Positions 712 to 15,883 of a DNA stretch of 64,000 nt are shown here, in pieces. The position numbers and the translations under genes were made by a program. The notes under the pieces were generated by a model, which was not told where the DNA came from, did not search any database, and saw nothing but the letters and a program-made list of their open reading frames with translations. How positions within the stretch are numbered: the first letter of the stretch is position 1; every line of letters starts with the position of its first letter. This DNA is from an uncultured Candidatus Saccharibacteria bacterium (GTDB lineage: Bacteria; Patescibacteriota; Minisyncoccia; Phycocordibacterales; Phycocordibacteraceae), in the NCBI GenBank assembly GCA_964469405.1, contig CAYXYP010000001.1, positions 36,782-100,781 of the forward strand, in the 5' to 3' direction.

Positions 712-1581
712 ATGATCTCTCGCGAACGTATCATCCCCATTCTTGCTACTTTTTTCATCATAAATGCTTCCAGTGCATTTTTTATAGGATCTGGCTTTGG
801 ATTTACTGCTCAAGCAAAAAATATTTTCCACAAGGATCAAGCATCCTACGCCGAAGTATCTACCACATCGGAACAGACTCTCTCGAACATTGCTTCATCT
901 ACTGAAAAAATTGACCTCCCAATTCTGGTGTATCACATCGTTCGACCGAGTTATCCGGATGACAGCGAAGCAGTGCGAACTCTCGCACTTACGCCGGAAA
1001 TCTTTGATGCGGAGATGATGTATTTAGACAAAACCGGACACCACATAGTGTCGTTTAGCGACCTTGAAAATTATTTTCGTAGCGGTACATTACTCCCAGA
1101 TAAACCCGTGATTATTTCTTTTGACGACGGCTGGAGCGACCAGTTCAAATACTCGTTCCCGACTCTTAAGAAATATAATTTCAAGGCTACATTCTTTGTC
1201 TTTACAAATTCAATCGGTCGACATGATTTCCTAACCTGGGAAGAATTGCAGGAAATGCTTGACGCAGGGATGACCATCGGAAGCCATTCACGCTCACACC
1301 CGTACCTCGCAAATATCACCGACCCAGATACGCTCTGGGATGAAATTTATGGCAGCAAAGTACTACTGGAGAAGCATCTCGGAATTCATGTCAACGAATT
1401 TGCCTACCCTTTCGGACAGTACAACGCTGATACCGTAGCGATGGTGGTGAAAGCCGGCTATCGATCAGGTCGTGGCGACTTTTATAGCGGGAAACAAACG
1501 GCGGACCGGCTCTACGAACTCAGCGCCATGAATGCACCGACCACTATGGAGTTTTTCGTAATGAGGTTCCCTTCCCGTTGA
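712..1581 (+). CDS. polysaccharide deacetylase (NodB-homology domain), N-terminal signal/TM
   Basis: Motifs 'ISFDDGW', 'HSRSHP' typical of the NodB/CE4 family; hydrophobic N-terminus. Confidence 0.7.
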   Translation: MISRERIIPILATFFIINASSAFFIGSGFGFTAQAKNIFHKDQASYAEVSTTSEQTLSNIASSTEKIDLPILVYHIVRPSYPDDSEAVRTLALTPEIFDAEMMYLDKTGHHIVSFSDLENYFRSGTLLPDKPVIISFDDGWSDQFKYSFPTLKKYNFKATFFVFTNSIGRHDFLTWEELQEMLDAGMTIGSHSRSHPYLANITDPDTLWDEIYGSKVLLEKHLGIHVNEFAYPFGQYNADTVAMVVKAGYRSGRGDFYSGKQTADRLYELSAMNAPTTMEFFVMRFPSR

Positions 1582-1613
1582 TACATAGCTGACTGTTACA
1601 CTACTCTTTCTTA

Positions 1614-2246
1614 ATGATTTCTAACAAGTGGTTGGTACAGGTGGGGATTATAGGGATCATGGCCGTTACTTTCGTAGTAGTGTCGTACGTCGCGCGAGCA
1701 AACGAACCTGTACTTGCTGCCATCGTTCAAGACGGAAATGTCACGAGCATCATTGGCTTCATTCTACTCACTGCACTATTCGTCGTCTTCGTTATTCCGC
1801 TCGACATTGTGTTCCTTATTCCTCTCGGCGCATTAGTGTGGGGACCCGTGCCAACAGCGCTGATGAGCATTATGGGATGGGTTCTCGGGAGCATGGTGGC
1901 ACTCGGTATCGCCCGCGCATTCGGAGCTCCTGTTGTAGAAAAAATGATTGGGCTGAAACGGATACGGGGTATCGAGGCGCGCATACCAAATCAAAACACC
2001 TTTTGGACTGTCGTATTCCTGCGGTTAATAATCCCTGTCGATATTTTAAGCTACGCACTCGGACTTTTTAGCACAATGTCATGGCGCCCGTATATGCTTG
2101 CAACACTGATAGGCGTAACTCCTTTCGGTTTCTATTTCTCCTACGCCGGAACACTTCCGTTTTGGTATCAAATCGCTGCGGTAATCGGCGCACTCGTACT
2201 TGCCACTGCAATCGTATTTAAATACGACGCTCAAGAAAATCCTTAA
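1614..2246 (+). CDS. DedA/TVP38-family integral membrane protein
   Basis: Multi-TM 210-aa protein with DedA-like 'GALVWGPVPTALMSIMGWVLG' core. Confidence 0.5.
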   Translation: MISNKWLVQVGIIGIMAVTFVVVSYVARANEPVLAAIVQDGNVTSIIGFILLTALFVVFVIPLDIVFLIPLGALVWGPVPTALMSIMGWVLGSMVALGIARAFGAPVVEKMIGLKRIRGIEARIPNQNTFWTVVFLRLIIPVDILSYALGLFSTMSWRPYMLATLIGVTPFGFYFSYAGTLPFWYQIAAVIGALVLATAIVFKYDAQENP

Positions 2247-2249
2247 TAT

Positions 2250-2436
2250 TTCTTTAATTCCAACCCACCGTTAACGAAAACGGAAAGCCGCCTCTCGCCG
2301 TGTTCGGCTCGAAACCTACGCTTCCTCTTCGGAAGCTGCGGCACTAAAGTACTGCTGTTTATTAGCCAATCGCTTCGCTCTTGGATAAACAGGGAGCCCG
2401 CGGTTCGATTCCGGCGACACTCGCATAAGTAGCTAA
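2250..2436 (+). other. unassigned structured region containing a degenerate tRNA-like T-arm (GGTTCGATTCC)
   Basis: 'gcccgcggttcgattccggcgacactcgca' at ~2395-2425 resembles the 3' half of the intron-tRNA at 14254-14290, but the T-stem is not fully pairable; a strong terminator follows immediately. Confidence 0.25.
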
Positions 2437-2469
2437 AAATCGCATGGCTTGCACCATGCGATTTTTCGT
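2437..2469. terminator. rho-independent terminator hairpin (bidirectional)
   Basis: Perfect inverted repeat AAAAATCGCATGG-cttgcac-CCATGCGATTTTT, flanked by an A-run and a T-run. Confidence 0.75.
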
Positions 2470-2473
2470 ACTT

Positions 2474-2640
2474 GTTGCCCGAGGCGGTACTGTACCCGTA
2501 CCCATAGGGAGTTACAAGGTTTTTAGGGGACCTTCCTTCCCCCTTAGTCGACGGGGGCCGGTATGGGTCGCTTTCCAATGATTTGAAGGGTTTTCGCTCG
2601 CTTCAGATCGGCCAACTAGGGCGGCGGTACTGTACCCCTC
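2474..2640. repeat. left boundary repeats of the island: GGCGGTACTGTAC (x2) flanking GGGGGCCGGTA
   Basis: GGCGGTACTGTAC at 2483-2495 and 2623-2635; GGGGGCCGGTA at 2553-2563; the same motifs recur at 14196-14229 next to the tRNA 3' end. Confidence 0.5.
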
Positions 2641-2681
2641 AATAGACACGATAGACACTATAAAAAGGGGCGGGAAAGTGT

Positions 2682-3227
2682 CTACTCGATTACCCACTCC
2701 ACCAATCCGAAATTTTCCGGCTCTAGCCCAATATTTAGAGCAGCCGCGAGCCACTCGATTTGAGAATTCTGTATCGCGTCTTTCTTCTGGCGCTTCAATT
2801 CGAGAAATACGGTCTTGCTTCCCTTCCAGACGAGGACGTCCCAGCATCCTCCGAACCGGCCGGTTTGCCTCCTCAGGTCGGAAACGAGATCCGCTTGTTT
2901 AGATGGCAAGTCTACCGGCTCCACGACATCCGGCAGGCCAACTCTATATTTCCTTCGATATGAATCCACCCAGACACCATTCCAGCCATTCGATTGAAAT
3001 AATCGAAGTACCGCGAGTTCTGCAAATACCGGCTCGCCGTTCCAATCGATAACCGCCTTATTGTTGTAGGTGTTCGGGATCGAATCGCCCACCCATTGTT
3101 TGAAGCGTAAAAAATATTTCGGTATTGAAATTTGCTCGCCAGAAGGAAGCGAAAATATTTCGCTATTACTTTTGTAATGCTCTAAAAATCCAAGATCTCC
3201 CGCTTGGTCGGGTTGTATTGTCTGCAT
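2682..3227 (-). CDS. PD-(D/E)xK / VRR-NUC-like nuclease-domain protein
   Basis: C-terminal 'GGCWDVLVW...FLELKRQKKD...Q..WL' matches the VRR-NUC/PD-(D/E)xK pattern (D...E-x-K, Q). Confidence 0.4.
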   Translation of the reverse strand: MQTIQPDQAGDLGFLEHYKSNSEIFSLPSGEQISIPKYFLRFKQWVGDSIPNTYNNKAVIDWNGEPVFAELAVLRLFQSNGWNGVWVDSYRRKYRVGLPDVVEPVDLPSKQADLVSDLRRQTGRFGGCWDVLVWKGSKTVFLELKRQKKDAIQNSQIEWLAAALNIGLEPENFGLVEWVIE

Positions 3228-3708
3228 GACCTGGGAAGGTTTTGTTTGGCGGGAAATACAAAGCTCCCCGCCAGGCGATGGCTTGCGCCACCCACCCCCA
3301 GTTTCCCGGAGGGACCTTCCCAGGTGCTCCTGACGAGGAGCTTTCTACTGGGAAGGATTTGCGTCATGCCGAGTTACCGGTTTAGACATCTTGATAATAA
3401 CGCGAAAGAGCGACCGTTGGCTACCCTAGCTTAGTTTTCGGTGGTTGCGAAGGACCCTGGGGATAACTACTTTAAGCAGCTCCGATTGACAGTGTTGACA
3501 TTCATCGTCTGTTATAAACGCTGATTTAAATATTCAGACTGAGAAAATATCGTGCGCACTGAATTGTCACGAAATGACTCTCAAAATAACTCGCGCAACA
3601 AAACGTCGATGTATACTTACACTAACCAGCGGGCGAGCAACCTATTTAGATACTGCGAGAGATTCCCAGTGTGGAATATTTCGATAGACACCAAACTAGC
3701 AACCGAAA

Positions 3709-5058
3709 ATGTTTATTCGGTTAACGATAAATGTTATGGGGAATCTCAACATAGTGTATGTGCCTATAAGTGAATTGAGACCGTCAGATTATAATCCGCG
3801 AAAATGGAACGAGGCACAGATAGTGGCACTGAAGGAAAGCTTACAGCGTTTTGGTGTTCTAGATCCATTGATATGTAATTCTGCACTCGGGCGTGAAAAT
3901 ATAGTTATTGGTGGACACTTCCGTCTCAAGGTCGCAAAGGATATGGGTCTCAAGGAGATGCCTGTTGTGTACGTGAATATACCGGAGATAGAGCGCGAGA
4001 AAGAATTAAATATCCGATTGAACAAAAACCTCGGAGAATTCGATCTAGCGATTCTTAAGGACTTCGGTGAGAACTTCTTAAAGGATGTGGGATTCGACAC
4101 GATCGAGCTAGACGAGATCTTTGAGGTTGCGACTACACCCGAGCATTTTGACCTTAAGCGCGAGCTGGAAAAACTTAACATCAGCGAGGTGACAATCAAG
4201 AAGGGCGATATGTTCGACTTAGACGGTTCGCGTCTTCGTTGTGGAGACAGCACTATTGAAGCTGACATGCTTGCACTGATGAACGAAGAGAAGGCCGACA
4301 TGTGTTTTACGGACCCACCCTATATTCTTGATTACCTTCGGGGTAAGAAGAAAAACGGCAAGCCAACGGAAGGTTTCGGATTAAAACGCGATCGTAAGTA
4401 TCTCGGAACCGACTCTCTACCCGAGAACTTCTCCGACCTCTGGATGGCGAACGTCGCCAAGGTGCAAAAGCCGGACTTCTCTATCATCGTTTATGAAAAT
4501 CCTAAGAATTTGAGGACTATATGGAACGCCCTTGAAAAACATTGGAAATATCGGAACACTATCGTGTGGCATCTAAGCAACCGCGTACAAGGTTTTTCTG
4601 CCAAGTACAAATTCTTTAGCAAGCACGATATAGCGCTTGTAGGCACCTCAGGCGATGTGACGCTCAATGATGAGCCAGAAGATGACCCGCTGTTCCAGGA
4701 ACAGTACGAGACAGCTCTCTTCGCAACTTCCGGCCATCCTCATTGGGAGGGACCTGGCAAAGGCAAAAAGTATTGCCCTACTGACCACATAGAATTCGTC
4801 GCGGCAGACGAAAAGTCGTCCGGTCAAGGAATAATCTTCGGGACTAAGCCAATAGAAATCCTCCTTCCATATCTGAAGGTGCTTACTAAGCGTGGCGATC
4901 TTGTGCTTGAGCCTTTCGGAGGTAGTGGTTCCACGCTCATCGCCGCCAACAAACTTGGTCGCCGTTGCTATGTGATGGAGAAGAGCGAAGTGTATACCGC
5001 AGTTATCATTGCCCGCTGGGAGAAGACAACCGGAAAAAAGGCGAAGAAAATTTCCTAG
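3709..5058 (+). CDS. ParB-like nuclease domain fused to a DNA methyltransferase (N6A/N4C, beta class)
   Basis: N-terminal ParB/Srx fold ('ISELRPSDYNPRKW...GGHFRL'); 'DPPY' motif IV (FTDPPY) followed by a C-terminal FxGxG SAM motif (EPFGGSGST). Confidence 0.7.
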   Translation: MFIRLTINVMGNLNIVYVPISELRPSDYNPRKWNEAQIVALKESLQRFGVLDPLICNSALGRENIVIGGHFRLKVAKDMGLKEMPVVYVNIPEIEREKELNIRLNKNLGEFDLAILKDFGENFLKDVGFDTIELDEIFEVATTPEHFDLKRELEKLNISEVTIKKGDMFDLDGSRLRCGDSTIEADMLALMNEEKADMCFTDPPYILDYLRGKKKNGKPTEGFGLKRDRKYLGTDSLPENFSDLWMANVAKVQKPDFSIIVYENPKNLRTIWNALEKHWKYRNTIVWHLSNRVQGFSAKYKFFSKHDIALVGTSGDVTLNDEPEDDPLFQEQYETALFATSGHPHWEGPGKGKKYCPTDHIEFVAADEKSSGQGIIFGTKPIEILLPYLKVLTKRGDLVLEPFGGSGSTLIAANKLGRRCYVMEKSEVYTAVIIARWEKTTGKKAKKIS

Positions 5059-5061
5059 CAT

Positions 5062-5709
5062 ATGGCTGGGAAACTTTCCCCGAAGAAGAAACGTCTTGCG
5101 ACCCTTGCCAAGAAGACTGCCGAGCAGAAGGATGCTCTCCTCGAACACCTCGCCAAATGTTGCATCGTGCAGGCCGCGTGCGAACGAACCGGAGTCGGTC
5201 GTTCCACATACTACAAATGGTACGCGGAAGATGATGGGTTCCGCAATGCGGCTGATAAGGCATTCACTGCCGGTCGTGCGTATCTGAATGATGTTGCTAT
5301 ATCAGGACTTCTTAAACTGATACAAGAAGGCAGTGTTGGGGCGACTATCTTCTGGCTCAAGAATAATCATATGTGGTTCGCCGAGAAAATCCGACATGAG
5401 CACGAGCATCGTATCATCGGTGTCGGCGATGGTGTACTTACCCCAGAACAACGCGAGCAACTCATTAAAGCTCAACGTCTCTCGGGCATGACGGCTGCGG
5501 CTATCATCCATGAAGAATTGAAAGAGAAATTCTTGGCAAGTAAGAAGGGCCAGGAAACGGCAAACGATGTTGACAAAAGTCCAACGAACGAGGCACCAGA
5601 TGACGATCGTATCTCAGACTGGGGTACAGGCAAACCGGCGGAGAAATTCAATAAAGAGCTCGAACGCAATGGGATCAATATCCAGGAGTTCTTGAGGAAT
5701 CGTAAATAA
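5062..5709 (+). CDS. phage terminase small-subunit-like HTH protein
   Basis: HTH 'CERTGVGRSTYYKW' and an 'IFWLKNNH' motif typical of phage TerS; sits downstream of the ParB-MTase as in phage packaging modules. Confidence 0.35.
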   Translation: MAGKLSPKKKRLATLAKKTAEQKDALLEHLAKCCIVQAACERTGVGRSTYYKWYAEDDGFRNAADKAFTAGRAYLNDVAISGLLKLIQEGSVGATIFWLKNNHMWFAEKIRHEHEHRIIGVGDGVLTPEQREQLIKAQRLSGMTAAAIIHEELKEKFLASKKGQETANDVDKSPTNEAPDDDRISDWGTGKPAEKFNKELERNGINIQEFLRNRK

Positions 5710-5715
5710 AATGGT

Positions 5716-5996
5716 TTTAATTCCAAGAATGGCCGCCCCCGAAGGAGAGGCCACCGCGAGAGTTATTTATTCCTCTCACGCTCAGTAGTGTCTGGATGTC
5801 TCTTGGCGTACTCTTCAGTACAGAAACGACCAGTGTCACTACGTCGATAGTCGTAGTTTGCCATAGGCAGATTCGATTAGGCTGATAAACCACCATGGAC
5901 ATGCGAAAGGCCGCATGCCCAGTCGTCAAGCAATAGAGGCTTCTCAGCTCCATGATGATTATCAACTCCATCAAGGCGGCCATTCTTGGAATCAAA
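5716..5996. repeat. 19-bp inverted repeat (TTCCAAGAATGGCCGCC) flanking a ~240-bp structured spacer
   Basis: 'ttaattccaagaatggccgcc' at 5716-5737 and its reverse complement 'ggcggccattcttggaatcaa' at 5975-5996. Confidence 0.5.
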
Positions 5997-6070
5997 GAAC
6001 CTATTTATGGTAGCTCATTTTGAGCCATAGTCGTAGACCCTAGCTTAGATACCCAGATTTGCAAAGAAGG

Positions 6071-7708
6071 TCAAAATGCAACCTCCTGGACAACTGTATC
6101 TAATCCCTGGAAATATTCGGACGGAATGTTTGATATTGGGTAGAATTTGAAACTTTTAATATCGGTACTTCCTGCCAAAGTTGCCGAGCCTTGCACAATA
6201 TATCCATCAACAGCATCCGTCTGCTCCGATATAACCGGCCCTCCACTCATACCGCTCCACATAGGGTTATTAACTAGATAGGCATGTATCCCTCCGGTTA
6301 CTTCCTTTTGTACAATATTCTGATCAACTGCTGCCGGTTCGCTCCAGAAATTTCCGTTGGACCTGAATCCTCCGTATCCCAAAGATACGTAGTCTTCTGT
6401 TTGACTATAACTATGATGAGTCTTTTTAGTGTTGGATTTAAAGATCAGGTCCGAATTGTCAGAAGCAGTGTACAAGACTGCAAAGTCTTTCACGACATCT
6501 CGACAGAGAACAGAAGCGCCCCTGAATTCAACTGGCAATCTTTTGTCTCGAGTAGTGAATTCGACACTCCCATCTTCCCCAACAACATGAGCGCAGGTGA
6601 CGATGGTGTTCTTGCTTATAAAAAAGCCACTACCGATTCCCTGAGTTGATTTGATGATTAGAACCTTGTTTAGATATTCCTCCTTCTTAGATTCTGGCAA
6701 TCTTTCCCCAAATTTCCCTTCCAAGTCACAGAGACGATTGAACAGCTTTCTATACAAGAGGTCTGTCTTATCTCTTACGTTGCCGATATGATCAATTCTG
6801 CCCCTAAGAACCTGTCGGAAGCTTTTTTTGAGACCTGAATTGTAACTATCATTAAACTTCTTCTCCGCTCCTTCTTCACCATAAACTTCCCAGGCATTAA
6901 GCATAGAACGAACATCTCTTATGTATTTTCGAGAAAGATTGCACTTCTTATTGACCTTAATTCCTGTAACCCACTTGCTTTGGTTTGGTACCGCTAAACG
7001 GGTCTTTTTTTGATTAATTGTAAAACCATTTGATTCTATTGTATTAACAATAGCCCTCCCGACAGTAACTGCACCTCCAACATTCGAGGCAAGTTTATTG
7101 TCTAGGCTATTTGCCGAAAATGTTATGTCATCCGCATAACGCGAATATCGCCAACCATTTTTATGTGCCAACCTGATTAGATCCTTGTCTAACCTTAGAC
7201 AAACCATGTTCGCAATAACAGGTGATGTAGGAGAACCCTGAGGTAAACAATTATCGCGTGTTGTGATTCCAGTCAGTACAGAAGATAGTTTATTTCCAAA
7301 ACGAAACGGATACCGTTTAAAAAGACCCATTACTCTTCCGGAGTTCACCACTCCAAAAAAGTCATTCAAATCAATATTTAATACGTAGTTTCTCTGGAGA
7401 TGGTTTTGAGCATTTGTAACAATCCCTCTACCATTAACAAACCCGTGAGCGGATTTTGGCAAAAACTCCTCGTATACGCTACCCAGATAGTAATTGAGTT
7501 TCTTACAGATAGTCTTTAATGCCTTATCTGGGGCATAAATATCTCTGTGCCCTCCCGTTTTTTTAGGAATCGTATAGTGCTTGTATAAAGATTCGTTGTT
7601 ATATGCAAAATAGAGGAGCGTCTCTAAATCAAGATCCAACAAATCTGCGAGATCTCTTATGTTTCCACAATCTCTAATATCTCTATCGGATTTGATGGTT
7701 GAAATCAT
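6071..7708 (-). CDS. retron-type reverse transcriptase fused to a C-terminal trypsin-like (S1) serine protease
   Basis: RT motifs: IPKKTGGHRDI, NIDLNDFF, LPQGSPTSPVIAN, YSRYADDITFS, and the retron-specific VTG (SKWVTGIKV). Protease motifs: TCAHVV (His) and GMSGGPV (Ser, GDSGGP-like). Confidence 0.8.
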   Translation of the reverse strand: MISTIKSDRDIRDCGNIRDLADLLDLDLETLLYFAYNNESLYKHYTIPKKTGGHRDIYAPDKALKTICKKLNYYLGSVYEEFLPKSAHGFVNGRGIVTNAQNHLQRNYVLNIDLNDFFGVVNSGRVMGLFKRYPFRFGNKLSSVLTGITTRDNCLPQGSPTSPVIANMVCLRLDKDLIRLAHKNGWRYSRYADDITFSANSLDNKLASNVGGAVTVGRAIVNTIESNGFTINQKKTRLAVPNQSKWVTGIKVNKKCNLSRKYIRDVRSMLNAWEVYGEEGAEKKFNDSYNSGLKKSFRQVLRGRIDHIGNVRDKTDLLYRKLFNRLCDLEGKFGERLPESKKEEYLNKVLIIKSTQGIGSGFFISKNTIVTCAHVVGEDGSVEFTTRDKRLPVEFRGASVLCRDVVKDFAVLYTASDNSDLIFKSNTKKTHHSYSQTEDYVSLGYGGFRSNGNFWSEPAAVDQNIVQKEVTGGIHAYLVNNPMWSGMSGGPVISEQTDAVDGYIVQGSATLAGSTDIKSFKFYPISNIPSEYFQGLDTVVQEVAF

Positions 7709-7847
7709 TCACTAATACACAAGCCTTCTTATCCTCGACCGCTAAATGCGGAACAACTTAACAACTTATGACACAGGGAGTATCCCCCTAACAACGTCAC
7801 AGCTCGTTGCTGTAACACAACGAAAAAATCGCTTGTGCATTAGTGAA
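7708..7847 (-). ncRNA. candidate retron msr/msd-like ncRNA bounded by a1/a2 inverted repeats
   Basis: 16-nt inverted repeats at 7708-7723 and 7832-7847 (15/16 Watson-Crick, one G.U). a1 ends in G, a2 abuts the RT start codon, and the inner 108 nt contain short hairpins. Confidence 0.3.
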
Positions 7848-7940
7848 TGCCTTCAAACCGAGGTAATAATAGCGCAAAATTGTCTGCAACGCTCAGAAAG
7901 TATCCGAGACGATTCGCTCGGGACCATTCAGACTGTGCAT

Positions 7941-8690
7941 TTAGTTTAGTTTTTGAAAAATAAAGAGGTGCTCATGCATTATCAATAAAAAGTTTGATTC
8001 CTTCGATCTGGTGACCCAGAAACCAGTTGCTTTGCAATTAAATTGTCGTTTAATAATATCCTCTTTCAGGACGAAACCTACTTTCAAGAATCGTTCCATT
8101 ACCTTAAAAGCGAGAGGTTGATACATTTTTTGTCTTCGAGTATCTCCCATCAAAATGGCACAGTATTTCCCAGGCCTTAAAACTCTATGGAGTTCTTTTG
8201 CAACCTTCTCTATTTCATCAACAAAAGCATCTATATCGTGTATTCCCGACAGGTCTTCTTCTATTTTGCCCTCGCTGTATTTGATGATGTCTGCATAAGG
8301 AGGGTGCGTGAGTACAAAATCAATTTCATTGTCTTTAATGAAGCTCATATTTCTCGCATCACACTTCACCACTCGTTGTTTCGCTTTATTGTCGACCTCA
8401 AATTCAAGTGATTTTCTTGTTCTTTCTAACGCTTCTTCATTCACATCAATGCAAGTGATATGACGATTAAGTATCTTTGCCTCTATTGCTGTAGTACCTC
8501 CTCCAATCATGCAGTCCAGCAAATGATCTTTTTCATTTGAGTACCGTAAAATAAGATTGCGGACGACCTCTGGTGCCCAATTTCCGCGCCAATCTGATTT
8601 ATGCGTCGCCCAGTTTCCACGACGCGGGAATGCCCATACGGTTGTACACTCTAGTTCAAATTCGTCAGGGTGTAATTTCTTTTCCACCAT
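7941..8690 (-). CDS. DNA methyltransferase (motif I GGGT then HPPY), DpnA/M.MboIC-like second MTase of an R-M system
   Basis: 'LDCMIGGGTT' SAM motif and 'HPPY' catalytic motif; 249 aa; adjacent to an REase and a Dam-like MTase. Confidence 0.6.
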   Translation of the reverse strand: MVEKKLHPDEFELECTTVWAFPRRGNWATHKSDWRGNWAPEVVRNLILRYSNEKDHLLDCMIGGGTTAIEAKILNRHITCIDVNEEALERTRKSLEFEVDNKAKQRVVKCDARNMSFIKDNEIDFVLTHPPYADIIKYSEGKIEEDLSGIHDIDAFVDEIEKVAKELHRVLRPGKYCAILMGDTRRQKMYQPLAFKVMERFLKVGFVLKEDIIKRQFNCKATGFWVTRSKESNFLLIMHEHLFIFQKLN

Positions 8691-8694
8691 ATAA

Positions 8695-9552
8695 TTACCA
8701 TACGAGCTTACCTAAAACTCCTGCTTCGAGCATGTTGAGATTAAATACATACTCGTTGTGATTGTATGTTTCTTCAAGAGGTCTCTTTGTAGTGTACCAA
8801 CCCAACCCATCAGTTATCCAAATAAAATCAATATTTTGAGCTTTCAGCTCATCATAAAGACTTCTGAATTCACCACACACGGCCTTCAGTTTTGAGCCAC
8901 CACCGTTATAAAAATTAGTTTCAAACAGTTTGATACTTTTATTCGTTGGGTTGTACACTGCAAAATCAAAACTTCGCTCTGATTTATCTATTTTCACGTC
9001 AACGCCCCACTTACTTTTTATGGCTGTAGAACGTGCTTGTGGCAAATACTCATAACCATTCTTGTTACAAAAATCACTTATGAATTCCCCTACAATCTCT
9101 TCCATCAGTGTGCCACCACGATTCTTACGGCCATTACTATCAAGACCGACCTCAACACCCATAACGTAGTCCACAAGATTCTTAACTCCATCCTTTTGGA
9201 ATAGTCGTGCGAGGCCAGATTTGTTGAGGAATTCAAAATACTTTGCTGGGTCTTTTTCTGTACCTGAGAAATCAAAGAACTCAGAATTCTTCGCAGCTTT
9301 ATCGAACACCTCGAGTTTATTCTCTCGTACGGCCAAAAGTACTGGCAGTGCCTTCACAATATCTGGGTTAGAACTATAGAGTTTCTTGAATTCGTCTTCC
9401 AGATTCTCTTTTCCGAGAAGATAATTGAGTTTATTGAGAGTTATCTCTAGATCAGAGCTATTCGCAAAGACCTTCTTCCAATTCACAAAATAGTCCCACG
9501 TCTTGATTGAACTCTTAAAAGTTGTGATGAGATTATTGAAGTCTTTGTCCAT
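8695..9552 (-). CDS. type II restriction endonuclease, probably DpnII/MboI family (GATC), inferred mainly from context
   Basis: 285-aa ORF sandwiched between a Dam-like MTase and a DpnA-like MTase, matching the DpnII/MboI/LlaDCHI cassette architecture. Confidence 0.45.
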   Translation of the reverse strand: MDKDFNNLITTFKSSIKTWDYFVNWKKVFANSSDLEITLNKLNYLLGKENLEDEFKKLYSSNPDIVKALPVLLAVRENKLEVFDKAAKNSEFFDFSGTEKDPAKYFEFLNKSGLARLFQKDGVKNLVDYVMGVEVGLDSNGRKNRGGTLMEEIVGEFISDFCNKNGYEYLPQARSTAIKSKWGVDVKIDKSERSFDFAVYNPTNKSIKLFETNFYNGGGSKLKAVCGEFRSLYDELKAQNIDFIWITDGLGWYTTKRPLEETYNHNEYVFNLNMLEAGVLGKLVW

Positions 9553-10650: not shown

Positions 10651-11988
10651 ATGAATAAGGCGGTATTTGAGGGTACAGACAGGGTTCTGGGGCTTAAACC
10701 AGAGGCCAAGGAGGCGGTAAAGGTGCGGTATTGCCTCTATGCCAGAAAGAGCACTGAACAGGACGAGATGCAGGCGCTCTCAATCGATTCGCAGATAAAG
10801 GAGATGACTGCACTCGCGGCTCGCGAAGACCTCGAAATTGTAGTGATTAAAAAGGAAAGCCATTCGGCGAAAGAGGCCAGCCAGCGGCCAGTCTTTAACG
10901 AGATGATCGACGAGATGCGCGCCGGTAAGTTCAACGGCATCCTGACCTGGGCGGCAGATCGTATTAGCCGCAATGCAGGCGACCTCGGGAGAGTCGTCGA
11001 TATGATGGACGCTGGAGTGCTCGTGCAGATACAGACGTATAGTCAGAAATTCTCGAACAATCCCAATGAGAAATTCCTGCTGATGATCCTCTGCTCGCAG
11101 GCGAAGCTCGAGAACGACAACAAAAGCATCAACGTGAAGCGCGGCCTACGCACACGCGCAGAGATGGGCATGCTCCCCGGCTGGGCTCCGGTCGGATATC
11201 TTAATGACACGCGGTCAGACCACAAATGCGAATATCTGCTCGACCCGATACGCTCCCCTATCGTGAAGCTTATCTTCGAAAAGGTCGGCAAAGAACGGTG
11301 GAGCGGAGTGAAGATATATCACTGGTTGCGAGAGGAAGTGAAGTTCACGACAAGAAGCGGGAAGAATATGAGTATCGGTACTCTCTACGAACTATTGAAA
11401 AACCCATTTTATTGCGGCGTCTTCGAGTATCCACGCGGGAGTGGCAATTGGTATGTCGGTAAGCACGAAGCGCTCATTACACGAGAACTCTTCGAGTTGG
11501 TACGCGAAAAGATCGTGTCAGAATCGAATCCAAAAAAACGAACGGGCGAATTTGCCTTCACTCGCCTGATGACTTGCAGCGAGTGCGGCTCTGGCGTCAC
11601 TTGCATGGATAAAGAGAAATTCGTAAAGATGCTCGGGACGACAAAGATTTACAGATATTACTTATGCACTCGAGCCCAAGACCGGCGATGTAAGAATCCG
11701 TACATTCGTGAGGATAATCTCATAGAACAACTCTCCGAAATCATCGATGGGATCGAGATAGACCGCCTTGGCGCGCGACACCTTATAGATAAAGAGGTCG
11801 CCAGATTCAACAAACTACGCTCACAGGTGCTAGGCGTAAAAGAGAAAGAAAAGGCACTCGAGATGGACGTGAAGCGTTATGCAAGATACCTGCTCGAGGA
11901 AGGCACTATCGAAGAAAAGCGACAGTTGCTTGAGCAGTTGCGCGGCAAGATCGTACTGAAAGATAAAGAAATCACGCTTTCAAATTAA
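10651..11988 (+). CDS. large serine recombinase (resolvase catalytic domain + recombinase domain + zinc ribbon)
   Basis: 'YARKSTEQ' catalytic Ser motif; C-terminal Cys-rich ribbon (CSECGSG...CTRAQDRRC); 445 aa. Confidence 0.7.
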   Translation: MNKAVFEGTDRVLGLKPEAKEAVKVRYCLYARKSTEQDEMQALSIDSQIKEMTALAAREDLEIVVIKKESHSAKEASQRPVFNEMIDEMRAGKFNGILTWAADRISRNAGDLGRVVDMMDAGVLVQIQTYSQKFSNNPNEKFLLMILCSQAKLENDNKSINVKRGLRTRAEMGMLPGWAPVGYLNDTRSDHKCEYLLDPIRSPIVKLIFEKVGKERWSGVKIYHWLREEVKFTTRSGKNMSIGTLYELLKNPFYCGVFEYPRGSGNWYVGKHEALITRELFELVREKIVSESNPKKRTGEFAFTRLMTCSECGSGVTCMDKEKFVKMLGTTKIYRYYLCTRAQDRRCKNPYIREDNLIEQLSEIIDGIEIDRLGARHLIDKEVARFNKLRSQVLGVKEKEKALEMDVKRYARYLLEEGTIEEKRQLLEQLRGKIVLKDKEITLSN

Positions 11989-12483
11989 ACGAGCACTCAT
12001 AAGTTGAATAGATAACGCCTGATCACTCACTCGATACAGACGAGCAAGTGTTGGAATATCAGGAGAGGATTTATAGTCTTTCTTGAGAATTATTTTCGGC
12101 ATGAGGAGCTCGGCAGCAAAAACATTCGCTTCGGTTTCGTCATGCGATCCATCATCCTGTCTACCGGTGCAAGCATGACCCAAAAGTAAGTGGCCTATTT
12201 CATGAGCGATTGTGAAGCGACGACGACACCAGGGATGATTGCCATTAAACCCGATAGTTGCGTATTCACCGTCAACATCTTTGCAGGATACGAGCAACCC
12301 AGAGACTTTACTGCTGGCTTCAACACGGAGCACGGTTAGATTATGCTCGATTTGCAGGTATTCGATGACCTGTTGCAACGAGACGGGCGCATTTTTTATT
12401 TGTGCGTCCTTAACCAGTTTCTGCGCTAGTGTTATCGCCAGCTTTTTCCGCGCACCCAAATCTGGCAAATCATCGTACATTTG
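11980..12483 (-). CDS. ImmA/IrrE-family zinc metallopeptidase (anti-repressor protease)
   Basis: HEXXH 'AHEIGHLLLGH'; overlaps the end of an upstream XRE regulator as in ImmR/ImmA modules. Start estimated at the internal Met (MYDD...). Confidence 0.6.
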   Translation of the reverse strand, partial: QMYDDLPDLGARKKLAITLAQKLVKDAQIKNAPVSLQQVIEYLQIEHNLTVLRVEASSKVSGLLVSCKDVDGEYATIGFNGNHPWCRRRFTIAHEIGHLLLGHACTGRQDDGSHDETEANVFAAELLMPKIILKKDYKSSPDIPTLARLYRVSDQALSIQLMSARLI

Positions 12484-12814
12484 GCCTGCGCTTCGCAAGA
12501 TTAATGAAGCGAGAGAGTGCGTCTTTATCCTCCTTACTGAGATCTGGGTCGGCGCGAAGAGCCACTTGAATATCGACGGGAGCATCCTCTTTCTGGCCGA
12601 GAAAAAATTTCACATCTCGCTGAAGTACTTCGCTCACACGCTGCAAAAGTGCGGCTGGGATACCTCGTTCACCCTTTTCAATCAAAGAGATGGCTGTTGC
12701 TGACTGGAAGCCGAGCGCTTCAGCCAACTCGGTCTGTGATAAATTCCTCTCCTCCCGGACTGCCTTTATCCTAGAGCCCATCGTATTGGCGCTTTTTCCT
12801 TCCTTTTTTATCAT
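12470..12814 (-). CDS. XRE-family helix-turn-helix transcriptional regulator
   Basis: 'LSQTELAEALGFQSATAISLIEKGER' HTH_XRE signature. Confidence 0.75.
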   Translation of the reverse strand: MIKKEGKSANTMGSRIKAVREERNLSQTELAEALGFQSATAISLIEKGERGIPAALLQRVSEVLQRDVKFFLGQKEDAPVDIQVALRADPDLSKEDKDALSRFINLAKRRPNVR

Positions 12815-12845
12815 ATTCTAATTATAGACTTTTCAATTAGTATTG

Positions 12846-12875
12846 ACAACAGCTTACCGATTTTGCTAAAATGGA
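12846..12875 (+). promoter_or_regulatory. sigma70-like promoter (TTGACA-18-TAAAAT) for the + strand cargo genes, divergent from the XRE gene
   Basis: 'TTGACAacagcttaccgattttgcTAAAAT' ~45 nt upstream of the 12920 start. Confidence 0.35.
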
Positions 12876-12919
12876 TTTAGCGTTCTGAAAAACGCCCTTA
12901 CAAAATCACCCGTCAAGCC

Positions 12920-13192
12920 ATGTTTACATACCTAGTCTCATACGACCTCATCCGCCCCCACAAAGATTATCCGAACCTCATCGCTTACATGAAGACCTTC
13001 AGCTCTTGGTCAAAGCCACTTGAGTCAGTCTGGCTAATTAAGAGTAGTGCTGGTGTCGAGCAGGTTCGCAATTCGATCCAGGTACATATGGACAGCAACG
13101 ACAAAATTCTGGTCGTTGACGTCACCAGCAGAGCTGCCGCTTGGGACAAACTCCCCGCGGAGGTTAGCACCTGGATCCATAGTTCATTATAA
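12920..13192 (+). CDS. hypothetical 90-aa protein (island cargo)
   Basis: ORF with no recognisable motifs. Confidence 0.4.
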   Translation: MFTYLVSYDLIRPHKDYPNLIAYMKTFSSWSKPLESVWLIKSSAGVEQVRNSIQVHMDSNDKILVVDVTSRAAAWDKLPAEVSTWIHSSL

Positions 13193-13208
13193 CCGAACGC
13201 GTACTACT

Positions 13209-14138
13209 ATGATCATCAAACAGAAGAGGATTCATAAACTTGAACCGTACACCCGTCTGATACCGACCGGGGACGACCTTGTGGTCGGTGTAGCAAGTCC
13301 CGCAGGGGACCGTCTCCGCGCCATCGGATTTTCTAACGCCCTTGAGAACGGCGAGACTGTGCTGCCTACACCAGTGGGACACACCAGCCTGTTCAATGCG
13401 GAGGGGAAAAATAAAATTAACCGCGACTTACCGAAGGAAACCCTATATCGCACCGCCGAGTGGACATGGACTGAGCTCCACGGAAAGGACCGCGTTGAGC
13501 GGACTGCCTTCGTTGACATACCCTACCAACGCTATCCACGTATACCTATTCCACCTCCGTCTATGGAGCTCGTTCTCGCGACAGATGCGGACGGAGTTCG
13601 CGTCGTAAGAACATCTATCATCAAGAATTGGAAAACCAGTCCTGATTCAGTAATTCACGCAGTGAACCTGATGCTTGAGCTGTTTGGTGAGTGTTTGTTC
13701 TACGATGCAGAAATGAAGCGTCTCATTGCCGCGCCAGTAAAGCGCTTGACCTGGAATCTACTTCCACCCGGAAGACGTCCATTCGCTGCCCTTAAGGCGA
13801 AGCTTGCCGAAGTACTCGCTGACGTGAAGACCGGTAAGCTATCGTTTACCGAACATCGCTTGGAGACAGTAAATGCGTATAAGCCAGACTTTGCGGCCGT
13901 TGGTAATGGCGGGTTTCGTGGCTACGTAGTGCTTGGCTTCGTAGATCGCAATCTGTATGTATTAGAGAGCTTACTGTATGGGAATGCGACTTATGTCTTT
14001 GAAGAGAACTGGGAAAACCTCTCAAAGAAGACGAAGGCAGAGATCCTTGATAAGCGACTTCAGAAAGAGCGTCTCGTTCATCATAAGAACTGGGCAGTCG
14101 ATGTTGCTTCGCTCTTGAAAATCGAGACGTCAAAATAG
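13209..14138 (+). CDS. hypothetical ~310-aa protein (island cargo); start estimated at internal Met (MIIKQKR...)
   Basis: Long ORF 13047..14138; no recognisable domain; terminator hairpin follows. Confidence 0.4.
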   Translation: MIIKQKRIHKLEPYTRLIPTGDDLVVGVASPAGDRLRAIGFSNALENGETVLPTPVGHTSLFNAEGKNKINRDLPKETLYRTAEWTWTELHGKDRVERTAFVDIPYQRYPRIPIPPPSMELVLATDADGVRVVRTSIIKNWKTSPDSVIHAVNLMLELFGECLFYDAEMKRLIAAPVKRLTWNLLPPGRRPFAALKAKLAEVLADVKTGKLSFTEHRLETVNAYKPDFAAVGNGGFRGYVVLGFVDRNLYVLESLLYGNATYVFEENWENLSKKTKAEILDKRLQKERLVHHKNWAVDVASLLKIETSK

Positions 14139-14150
14139 TACTAGCAACAA

Positions 14151-14184
14151 ACGCAGAAGCCGCTCTTTCGAGCGGCTTCTGCGT
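14151..14184. terminator. perfect hairpin terminator (ACGCAGAAGCCGCTC-tttc-GAGCGGCTTCTGCGT)
   Basis: 15-bp perfect inverted repeat, T-rich on the minus strand after it; downstream of both the cargo gene (+) and the tRNA (-). Confidence 0.6.
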
Positions 14185-14253: not shown

Positions 14254-14542
14254 TTGCGGGGGCCGGAATCGAACCGGCGTCTGGAGGTTATGCTTACCAC
14301 TACAATTTTCATTGCCCTATAGTTTGTGGTCTGGACTATGCCTTCATCCGTCAACTTGCCGGATGTCTACCGTCTAGTCTCTACACCTTCCGAGTGACAA
14401 CCATCACAGGGCTTGGCTCGGTGTTGCCCTTCGTTATTCATGAGAGGGGTTCGCCGAATTTGGCAGATAATCTTGCGCGCAATTACTCACGCGTACGCCC
14501 GAATTTTTCAAGCCTCCCGAGGTACCTCTCCTCTACCCCGCA
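14254..14542 (-). tRNA. tRNA (anticodon most likely CAU: Met or Ile2) split by a ~218-nt group I intron in the anticodon loop; no encoded CCA
   Basis: Exon 1 (14542 to ~14511) folds as acceptor UGCGGGG, D-arm GAGG/CCUC, anticodon stem GGAGG + CU. Exon 2 (~14292 to 14254) gives CAUAA + CCUCC, var loop, T-arm GCCGG-UUCGAUU-CCGGC, acceptor CCCCGCA. Only the CU|...G|CAUAA split obeys the exon-U / intron-omegaG rule. Confidence 0.7.
14293..14510 (-). other. group I (IC3-like) self-splicing intron within the tRNA
   Basis: Core elements on the minus strand: P-like AAUUGCGCG, 'CAAAUUCGGCGAA', 'GCAACACCGAGCCAAGC', R 'GGUGUAGAGACUAGACGG' and S 'AUAGUCC' (P7 pairing GACUA/UAGUC). Close resemblance to bacterial tRNA group I introns (Azoarcus/cyanobacterial type). 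Confidence 0.6.
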
Positions 14543-14639: not shown

Positions 14640-15341
14640 ATGAAGACTGCCTCAAAATTACGAGCCGAATCATTACGACACCGAGGGAAAAGTGTTAAAG
14701 AAATCGCCCTGAAAGTCGGCGTCAGCCAGAGCACGGCAAGCCGGTGGTGTGCTGGCATTATTCTCTCCATAGATCAGCGCGGTGCATTGGAAAGAAAGCG
14801 ACAAAAAGCAGGTGCAAAAGCCCTTGCTCCTTGGATACGCCGAAATCGTGATTTGAAAAAGAAGGACATCGAGAAACAGAGCCAGCAAGGCCGTCGAGAT
14901 ATACGTAAGTTAACAAAACGTGACTTGCTTACGCTTGGATTGGGTCTCTATTGGGGTGAAGGGTATAAGCGCGGTAGCCAAGAATGGGGGTTCACAAATT
15001 CTGATTCTGGAATGATACGAACTGTTCTTGTGTGGCTTCATGAATGTTACAACATACCGATTGAACGCATCATCGCAAAACTCACGATAAATCTACGGTA
15101 TAAAACTCAAACTGAGCGTCTGACGGACATGTGGGCGGACGAAACTGGTATCCCACTTTCTCAATTCGGGAAGCCAACGTTCATAAGCGGTTATAATAGT
15201 TCAAAACTAAATGAGCGTTCTTATCGAGGAACTCTTCGTATCAAAGTACGCAGAGGAACATCGCTCCGTCGACGTATTCTCGCAAGTATTGTCGAAATTA
15301 ATACTCAAATGACTTTGAATTCGCGAAAGACGGCAGAATAG
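14640..15341 (+). CDS. HTH + LAGLIDADG-like (single-motif) homing-endonuclease-like protein
   Basis: N-terminal HTH 'KSVKEIALKVGVSQSTASRW'; 'LGLGLYWGEGYK' resembles the LAGLIDADG motif with an acidic residue. Confidence 0.3.
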   Translation: MKTASKLRAESLRHRGKSVKEIALKVGVSQSTASRWCAGIILSIDQRGALERKRQKAGAKALAPWIRRNRDLKKKDIEKQSQQGRRDIRKLTKRDLLTLGLGLYWGEGYKRGSQEWGFTNSDSGMIRTVLVWLHECYNIPIERIIAKLTINLRYKTQTERLTDMWADETGIPLSQFGKPTFISGYNSSKLNERSYRGTLRIKVRRGTSLRRRILASIVEINTQMTLNSRKTAE

Positions 15342-15883
15342 CGGGCGATGGTACGCCGTGCGAGCGACTCGGAGAGATCGAACGCGGAACCTTCATGCGC
15401 TATTAGATTTCGTACTTTATGCGCCTCCCATGCGTCCTGAAGCGTATTGAAATGCACCTTATCGGCAGACTTTAACTTCTCGCCTACGCCGATACCAACA
15501 TACCCATTTCGCGTCAACATATCGTCGAGCATGATATCAGCCTCGATGATCGCCTCGCGCCACTCGCTCGGACTTGTCCCGCCTGCAAGCAATTCAATAT
15601 GTTGCCAACGCGAGGAAGTGCTTTCTGTGGCGCCGGCCTCGACAAGGAGTGTGCTGTAAAATTTGCCTTCGCGCTTGCGCAGATCGAAGAGACGCATGGT
15701 GGTATAGACGATAACGAGAAACCCAAAAACAGAGAGTATGTAACCAATGACAACAACCCAAACCCATAGATGTGCCAGAAACGAGGCGAGCCATGCAAGC
15801 CATGCTGAGCTGTAGCACGCACCATGGAAACACTCATACAGGAGGCGGAACCAATATTCAACATTGATTTGGTTTACGGGCAT
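15305..15883 (-). CDS. membrane-anchored HEPN-domain protein (Rx4H motif), possible Abi/toxin-like
   Basis: N-terminal TM helices; C-terminal 'HKVRNLIAHE' Rx4-6H HEPN signature. Confidence 0.4.
   Translation of the reverse strand: MPVNQINVEYWFRLLYECFHGACYSSAWLAWLASFLAHLWVWVVVIGYILSVFGFLVIVYTTMRLFDLRKREGKFYSTLLVEAGATESTSSRWQHIELLAGGTSPSEWREAIIEADIMLDDMLTRNGYVGIGVGEKLKSADKVHFNTLQDAWEAHKVRNLIAHEGSAFDLSESLARRTIARYSAVFREFKVI

Follow-up and report, generated by a model that had tools for sequence, protein, structure and literature searches.

The cassette examined here lies at the end of a mobile island in an uncultured Candidatus Saccharibacteria bacterium (contig CAYXYP010000001.1 of assembly GCA_964469405.1, positions 36,782 to 100,781 of the forward strand), and the whole stretch of 64,000 nucleotides that was analyzed is referred to as the window. 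The housekeeping neighbors in the window (gatA, gatC, ligA and type IV pilin genes) and the taxonomy of the homologs point to a Patescibacteria/CPR genome. With slightly better than even confidence, sequence comparison led us to read the locus as an immune module derepressed by stress or DNA damage, which would consist of a repressor-peptidase switch, a Cas2-like accessory protein of 90 amino acids (aa; plus strand, 12920-13192) and a stand-alone DNA-binding effector of 309 aa with an EH-type domain (plus strand, 13209-14138). The switch is of a known kind, and the family of the 309-aa protein has been noticed computationally and is uncharacterized. The 309-aa gene itself is sporadic, mobile and associated with defense islands.

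The reading of the 309-aa protein was drawn from its C-terminal part. An EH-signature-like motif was found at about residues 225-300, formed by E253, G258-N259-A260, Y262, R288, H291 and W295. The protein was compared with ZorC of the type I Zorya system (PF15611) by means of an alignment built from the E. coli E24377A zorC, the profile of which was shallow (number of effective sequences, Neff, of 1.9). When the C-terminal regions were aligned by hhalign, the residues of the motif were paired with E400, G405-N406-A407, Y409, the Arg of the ZorC LRLPH stretch, H443 and W458, respectively, in an alignment that did not reach significance (E=0.01, probability 4%), and the paired E, GNA, Y, R, H and W residues were invariant in both the 309-aa family and ZorC. 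The EH signature of ZorC comprises E400 and H443, which take part together with W458 in an electrostatic network, and the E400A and H443A substitutions abolish both double-stranded DNA binding and defense (Hu et al., Nature 2024, PMC11946911). A regular expression written for the joint motif matched 62 of the 7,911 open reading frames (ORFs) of the fetched loci, all 62 being family members; among the family sequences 169 of 255 were matched, and among the ZorC sequences 93 of 110. ZorC was the second-best structural match of the 309-aa protein, which may reflect a similar core domain. A further pairing, of the C-terminal globular domain of ZorC with the N-terminal domain of the family, was given a probability of 0.15% by hhalign and was not relied on.

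An independent prediction points in the same direction. In Table S10 of DeWeirdt et al. (Science 2026; PMC13092281) the E. coli homolog WP_000908169.1 is classed as a 'predicted novel defence gene'; its DefensePredictor mean log-odds is 4.56, and an HHblits match to the ZorC EH-signature domain is given at 21% coverage and Prob 78.5. The family resembles ZorC in the invariant E...GNA.Y...R.xH...W residues, in its basic character (median isoelectric point, pI, of 9.0; 9.4 for the window protein) and in its defense context, and it differs from ZorC in that neither the ZorA/ZorB motor nor the ZorD nuclease is encoded alongside it. That the C-terminal core is homologous to the EH domain was considered likely, though not proven. 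Of the novel defense or anti-defense function that the first-pass annotation had suggested, the defense part was strengthened by the prediction for the E. coli homolog and by the defense-island context, while nothing was found that points to anti-defense.

Both ORFs are real genes, because the large one has at least 374 homologs and those of the small one form 28 clusters. The ATG start of the 309-aa gene at 13209 was fixed by the N-termini of 46 homologs; a longer ORF from a GTG at 13047 found no support. No match to the 309-aa protein was obtained in Pfam, NCBIfam, PADLOC (Zorya models included), PHROGs or in phmmer and profile searches of the PDB, nor did a Pfam scan of all 47 aligned family members yield one. 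A known abortive-infection or other defense family was ruled out for the content of PADLOC v2 only, and all public sources label the family 'hypothetical protein'. Clustered at 50% identity, the family counts 2,011 representatives with E<=1e-3, of which 420 have E<=1e-30, and nearly all members are about 300 aa long with a single architecture. They occur in Patescibacteria, Proteobacteria, Firmicutes, Bacteroidota, Cyanobacteria, Actinomycetota, Deinococcota, Methanobacteriota and Bathyarchaeota.

This spread is sporadic and mobile rather than that of ubiquitous housekeeping genes outside mobile contexts. Matches were found in 224 of 185,579 species genomes, and 100 of the 5,426 complete E. 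coli genomes (1.8%) carry the gene, where the copies lie at island ends between a recombinase and tRNA-Leu or tRNA-Gly and so mirror the window. Homologs were also found on 22 plasmids, some of only 8-14 kb, and on 11 IMG/VR contigs; Truepera and plasmids of Deinococcus carry them as well, one of the latter with the homolog beside a Gabija-like pair. On plasmid 5 of Lactococcus cremoris SK11, a 14-kb dairy plasmid (L097, 301-5912), the homolog LACR_E5 lies 18 bp 3' of the gene of a 1,560-aa LlaGI-like Type ISP enzyme, with which it may be co-transcribed.

The switch is encoded on the minus strand, divergently from the cassette, by two genes that overlap by 11 nt. The first is an XRE-family helix-turn-helix (HTH) repressor of 114 aa (12470-12814; Pfam HTH_3, E=3e-12; PADLOC capH, E=7e-10) and the second a short M78 zinc metallopeptidase of 166 aa (11980-12480; PF06114, E=7e-16; PADLOC capP, E=4.9e-21), which bears out the XRE/ImmA-like pair of the first-pass annotation. 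The peptidase length is that of the gene call in public Hainich groundwater metagenome contigs matching the window, and the open frame reaches 12585, giving 201 aa at most. The capH match is full-length, running from residue 9 to residue 109 of the 114-aa repressor (profile positions 4-100 of 103) with the C-terminal oligomerization/cleavage region included, and the capP match covers only positions 6-151 of 242. In the translated peptidase, HEIGH is followed by C..DD and then by the Glu of ETEANVFAAE; the stretch with the Cys and the Asp-Asp pair reads HEIGHLLLGHACTGRQDDGSHDETE, its spacing being slightly off that of C114/D117/D118 in E. coli CapP. The window peptidase resembles CapP in the HExxH...E motif and perhaps in a Cys/Asp-Asp loop reminiscent of the cysteine switch; the domain map of CapP and its residues C114/D117/D118 have been described (PMC13228613). 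Unlike the 288-aa CapP, it has neither the central HTH nor the C-terminal GAF domain that form the CapP groove for single-stranded DNA (ssDNA), and the predicted enzyme is ImmA-like in size.

In the CapH/CapP system, ssDNA-activated CapP cleaves the repressor CapH, whereupon a divergent immune operon is derepressed (10.1101/2022.04.27.489752; PMC13228613), and the two genes lie upstream of the controlled operon on the opposite strand (Lau et al., 10.1101/2022.04.27.489752). The related pairs ImmR/ImmA of ICEBs1 and phage phi105 and DdrO/IrrE of Deinococcus operate likewise, and the window genes share with such systems an XRE repressor and an M78 peptidase encoded upstream and divergently. Judged by these matches, the window genes are a genuine pair of the CapH/CapP or ImmR/ImmA type, and a repress-then-cleave logic is well supported by homology.

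The two transcription units are separated by a control region of 105 bp (12815-12919). The promoter TTGACA-18-TAAAAT described earlier was recovered on the plus strand at 12843-12872, with 11 of 12 consensus matches and a TG extension, and it is conserved in five related loci: when these were aligned with the window, the TTGAC and TTTGnTAAAnT boxes were invariant in all six. A mirror promoter for the regulator genes, TTGTCA-17-TATAAT, lies on the minus strand at 12849-12821, and an inverted repeat occupies 12815-12823 and 12835-12843.

The first gene of the plus-strand operon encodes the 90-aa protein, which matched phrog_1090 (E=5e-25) and, weakly, Cas2 (Pfam, E=0.026; PADLOC Cas2b, E=0.0034); the Pfam threshold of PF09827 was not reached (15.1 bits against a gathering score of 23.8), and four clusters of homologs carry a precomputed PF09827 match. 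The earlier view that neither ORF has a recognizable motif was accordingly abandoned for this protein, as for its larger neighbor. An AlphaFold2 model (predicted local distance difference test, pLDDT, of 80) showed a beta-alpha-beta-beta-alpha-beta topology with a C-terminal helix. The residues Y8-D9-L10 at the end of strand 1 are invariant, and D9 occupies the position of the catalytic Asp of Cas2. The protein is Cas2-like in fold and sequence, and it shares the ferredoxin fold, the conserved Asp ending strand 1 (YDL) and the length of about 90 aa with Cas2, the stand-alone BPSL1038 and the GhoS antitoxin. Unlike Cas2, it is encoded away from cas1 and CRISPR arrays, behind an XRE/M78 switch and before varied defense cargo; the gene lists of the window and of eight loci with the small gene contained no cas genes.

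The first-pass annotation had treated the 90-aa and 309-aa genes as a two-gene cargo, and this pairing did not stand. On all contigs with close homologs the small gene comes first after the divergent short M78 and HTH pair, and the same triad precedes at least four different cargos, so the 90-aa gene is a component of the regulator module, not of the cargo. The triad is followed by the 309-aa gene in the window and in L015, and by a SMODS-like cyclase and a four-transmembrane effector of a cyclic-oligonucleotide-based antiphage signaling system (CBASS) in L092-L094. The 309-aa gene occupies the slot that is filled by CBASS and TIR systems behind the same switch. A constant third member of this sort was absent from the CapH/CapP papers compared, which sets the present switch apart from theirs.

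Two of the other cargos were themselves noted as candidates. In L091 (5294-6821), L095 (5293-6821) and L096 the triad precedes genes for a ThsB_TIR protein (128 aa), an 8xMP protein (163 aa) and a protein of 212-223 aa, a set regarded as a compact TIR-based candidate system. In L089 (5654-7629) and L090 (1738-3713) it precedes a pair of 375 aa and 270 aa without a Pfam or PADLOC match, which is a further candidate defense system.

The genomic context of the 309-aa gene was examined across 83 non-redundant loci, the neighbors of which were clustered; labile repressors and defense genes recur among them. The 90-aa gene was found in only 3 of these loci. Neighbors of the XRE/M78 family, split or fused, were present in 23, a true LexA (LexA_DNA_bind with Peptidase_S24) in 14 and HTH-Panacea antitoxins in 4 (L009, L014, L021 and L055), and about 40% of the loci have the 309-aa gene beside a proteolysis-labile repressor, whether LexA, XRE with M78 or an XRE-Panacea antitoxin. 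In each of four further long contigs, the gene divergent from the 309-aa gene encodes either LexA/S24 or an HTH-M78 fusion. The same effector family is thus coupled time and again to proteolysis-labile repressors of three unrelated kinds. The defense neighbors of the family include DpnII restriction-modification (R-M), the reverse transcriptase-protease, CBASS, GmrSD, Mrr, Gabija, the LlaGI-like Type ISP enzyme and MmeI.

Among the systems associated with CapP/CapH, a related arrangement is listed under the name 'DUF2188 + hypothetical protein system' (Fig. 6F of Lau et al. 2022, 10.1101/2022.04.27.489752). DUF2188, the PADLOC candidate PDC-S16, occurs in 9 of the 83 loci and often overlaps the 309-aa gene; L036, L088 and L103 read M78-HTH, then divergently the 309-aa gene with DUF2188 before or after it, and were likened to the system of Extensimonas perlucida (WP_144728457/9) by architecture alone. 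The window differs in having the Cas2-like gene in place of DUF2188. Small flanking proteins vary by lineage: a GIY-YIG-like protein of about 100 aa, a DUF3892-like one of 106 aa, a YjzC-like one of 85-87 aa, a KTSC protein of 71 aa and DUF2188 were seen (L017/L019/L027, L020/L022/L026, L005/L006, L034/L041 and L099, 4774-4986), and they could be nuclease or sensor partners. Many loci, those of E. coli included, have neither a small flanking gene nor a regulator. Whether short M78 proteins tend to be accompanied by a small partner gene was looked at, and the idea was dropped because the pattern was not clean.

The frequent LexA neighbors bear on another explanation, by which the 309-aa protein would be a DNA-damage-response factor for protection, repair or replication restart in SOS-like regulons, merely carried by mobile elements. 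Such a role would suit a basic protein with a putative DNA-binding motif, its position directly beside bona fide LexA genes in at least 14 loci, often divergent from lexA with palindromes over the -35 box as in LexA-controlled SOS cassettes, the locus flanked by housekeeping genes (L104), and the homologs of Deinococcus and Truepera; in Deinococcus, DdrO/IrrE-type switches govern repair genes (PMC12828697). We nevertheless considered this role unlikely. The gene is sporadic at the rates given above, and it is found at island ends beside tRNAs and integrases, on plasmids of small size and among genes of R-M, CBASS and Gabija systems; it also fills the CBASS/TIR slot behind the same switch. The adjacent LexA of gammaproteobacteria is moreover an accessory copy, moving along with the gene on mobile DNA, the window uses XRE/M78 in its stead, and a LexA box was looked for upstream of the E. 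coli copy and none was found. Against this and the other alternatives, the main discriminators were the sporadic mobile distribution, the slot shared with CBASS and TIR cargo and the copies that lack a regulator.

Some LexA loci deserve a description of their own. L104, which is flanked by housekeeping genes (rpoB/C, RNase Y, HU), and L038, a Pseudomonadales genome, have nearly the same operator-promoter, AGAACAnnTTGACTTGTTCTAGTnTTTGTTCTA, between lexA and the 309-aa gene (7937-7975 and 7924-7960, respectively). That this element is shared across phyla implies that the LexA-effector unit moves horizontally. L105 (JGI 3300044904, 777-8918) is a sister island of that in the window, with the same 445-aa serine recombinase and DpnII and an effector of 60% identity, in which a LexA-like S24 repressor replaces the XRE/M78 pair and the 90-aa gene; it holds no Cas2-like gene and offers a comparison in which nature has swapped the regulator.

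The Panacea loci were relevant to a second alternative, that the 309-aa protein is a growth-arresting toxin within an addiction or abortive-infection module, the labile repressor serving as a transcriptional 'antitoxin' and the whole stabilizing the island. The family does stand behind three unrelated kinds of labile repressor, HTH-Panacea antitoxins included, XRE+COG2856 is reportedly a classic toxin-antitoxin-like pair, and the cassette sits at an island end. Still, this was judged improbable: all four Panacea antitoxins have a RelE- or MqsR-like small toxin of their own, many copies (in 100 E. coli genomes and on small plasmids) have no adjacent repressor or antitoxin, which speaks against intrinsic toxicity, and profile searches detected no toxin domain in the 309-aa protein. 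The narrower possibility that it is the PanT toxin of the adjacent Panacea antitoxin was rejected, since each antitoxin has its own overlapping RelE/MqsR-like ORF. It was observed that in these four loci the HTH-Panacea genes occupy the exact place of LexA or XRE/M78 elsewhere, which suggests that toxin-antitoxin modules serve as transcriptional switches for a neighboring gene.

A large serine recombinase of 445 aa is encoded just beside the switch (plus strand, 10651-11988; Pfam Resolvase 5e-21, Recombinase 4e-14, Zn_ribbon_recom 2e-7), and the operon might serve the mobile element itself, one or both of its proteins being an excision or recombination directionality factor for this enzyme, induced like xis of ICEBs1. 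The gene order of recombinase, immA-like and immR-like genes and a divergent operon mirrors int-immA-immR and xis of that element (Lau et al.), and the order of serine recombinase, M78, HTH and 90-aa gene recurs in L092-L094 and L107. Serine recombinases are found within 4 kb of the 309-aa gene in about 16 loci (among the clustered neighbors in 8 of 83), and tyrosine integrases are immediate neighbors in 5. A directionality factor was nonetheless thought very improbable, for the 309-aa family accompanies serine, tyrosine or no recombinase, on 8-14 kb plasmids and by chromosomal LexA, the 90-aa gene occurs with no recombinase nearby in L089, L091 and L095, and the cargos downstream of the triad are bona fide defense systems.

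Several points weigh against the immune module as it was set out above. Besides the insignificant C-terminal alignment, the full-length hhalign comparison with the shallow ZorC profile gave a probability below 1%, Pfam EH_Signature (PF15611) had no match at E<=1 in 47 family members, and no convincing structural match was found for the fold outside the EH-like region. ZorA, ZorB or ZorD partners were found neither in the window nor in the gene lists and neighbor scans of the related loci. A regulator gene is not adjacent in over half of the loci, among them those of E. coli. Since the window peptidase lacks the GAF/HTH groove for ssDNA, its inducing signal could only be inferred. The association of the triad is limited to close relatives of the small protein (57-94% identity), and distant phage-borne relatives (31-52% identity) do not lie beside M78/HTH genes, so the triad is a feature of one subfamily.

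With these points taken into account, the following course of events was proposed for the immune module. Gene identities, architecture, promoter conservation, context statistics and the identity of the motif are established for it, whereas the inducing signal, the binding of DNA and the effect on phages are inferred. By homology, the XRE repressor would bind the divergent promoter region and silence the plus-strand operon. On sensed damage or phage infection, the M78 peptidase would cleave the repressor, as in CapH/CapP, ImmR/ImmA and DdrO/IrrE, and the operon would then be transcribed from the promoter, whose sequence conservation is in keeping with such use, giving the Cas2-like and the EH-domain proteins. 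Nucleic acid is the probable target of the Cas2-like protein, which would be either a small nuclease or RNA/DNA binder, or else a subunit that provides sensing or feedback to a peptidase devoid of the GAF sensor of CapP. By remote homology, the 309-aa effector is expected to bind DNA without sequence specificity through the network of E253, H291 and W295. It would then block or mark the DNA of the phage (or of the host), either by itself or assisted by a small nuclease, and thereby limit phage propagation.

If this is true, a family of about 2,000 clusters of 'hypothetical proteins' would gain its first functional handle, an EH-type DNA-binding motif with named residues, and the least understood component of Zorya would have free-living relatives used as inducible effectors. 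The CapH/CapP paradigm would be widened in two ways, by a minimal peptidase that is partnered by a Cas2-like protein and by the swapping of three unrelated repressor types before one effector. Three features appear to be undescribed in the literature searched: the control of a stand-alone EH-signature protein by damage-labile repressors, the constant company of a Cas2-like protein for a CapP-type peptidase that has no GAF domain, and the exchange of repressor types before the 309-aa gene. A broader joint claim was put forward only tentatively and is more doubtful than the module itself, namely that stand-alone EH-signature proteins may be a large unrecognized class of single-gene DNA-binding immune effectors, present in bacteria and archaea, decoupled from the Zorya motor and armed by interchangeable damage-labile repressors (LexA, XRE/M78 and XRE-Panacea), and that the Cas2-like protein may truly belong, as a third component, to a CapP/CapH-type switch without GAF, where it could for instance supply the sensing of nucleic acid or the feedback missing from the truncated peptidase. 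The native E. coli members make the family directly testable.

As the first-pass annotation had stated, the cassette forms the island end: it is the tRNA-proximal part and adjoins a tRNA gene (minus strand, 14255-14542) that contains a group I intron and marks the right border. The intron, at about 14300-14519, was matched by Rfam RF00028 with 48.3 bits (E=3e-11) against a gathering score of 50, and a T-arm match lies at 14262-14279. ARAGORN detected the tRNA body after removal of the intron and missed it on the raw sequence; the splice site, and with it the tRNA isotype, is ambiguous.

The perfect terminator reported earlier behind the cassette was retained in part. A perfect hairpin with a 15-bp stem and a 4-nt loop is present at 14151-14184, 13 nt past the stop codon of the 309-aa gene, with a folding free energy of -35.6 kcal/mol on the plus strand (z=-5.4) and -37.6 kcal/mol on the minus strand. 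Its U-rich tail is found on the minus strand only, facing the intron-split tRNA gene, and is therefore oriented as a terminator of that gene; the hairpin is at best a bidirectional terminator and more likely the tRNA gene's own.

The window island is a defense island. Upstream of the cassette it holds a DpnII R-M system and two further methyltransferases, a reverse transcriptase-trypsin fusion and a ParB-methyltransferase. The fusion, a 545-aa protein of RVT_1 and a Trypsin_2 protease (minus strand, about 6071-7708), is encoded between the ParB_N-methyltransferase (about 3736-5058) and the DpnII R-M genes, and may be a defense-associated reverse transcriptase. Beyond the tRNA gene, two proteins without a family match are encoded, one of 233 aa with only an N-terminal HTH (plus strand, 14640-15341) and one of 192 aa with predicted hydrophobic segments (minus strand, 15305-15883).

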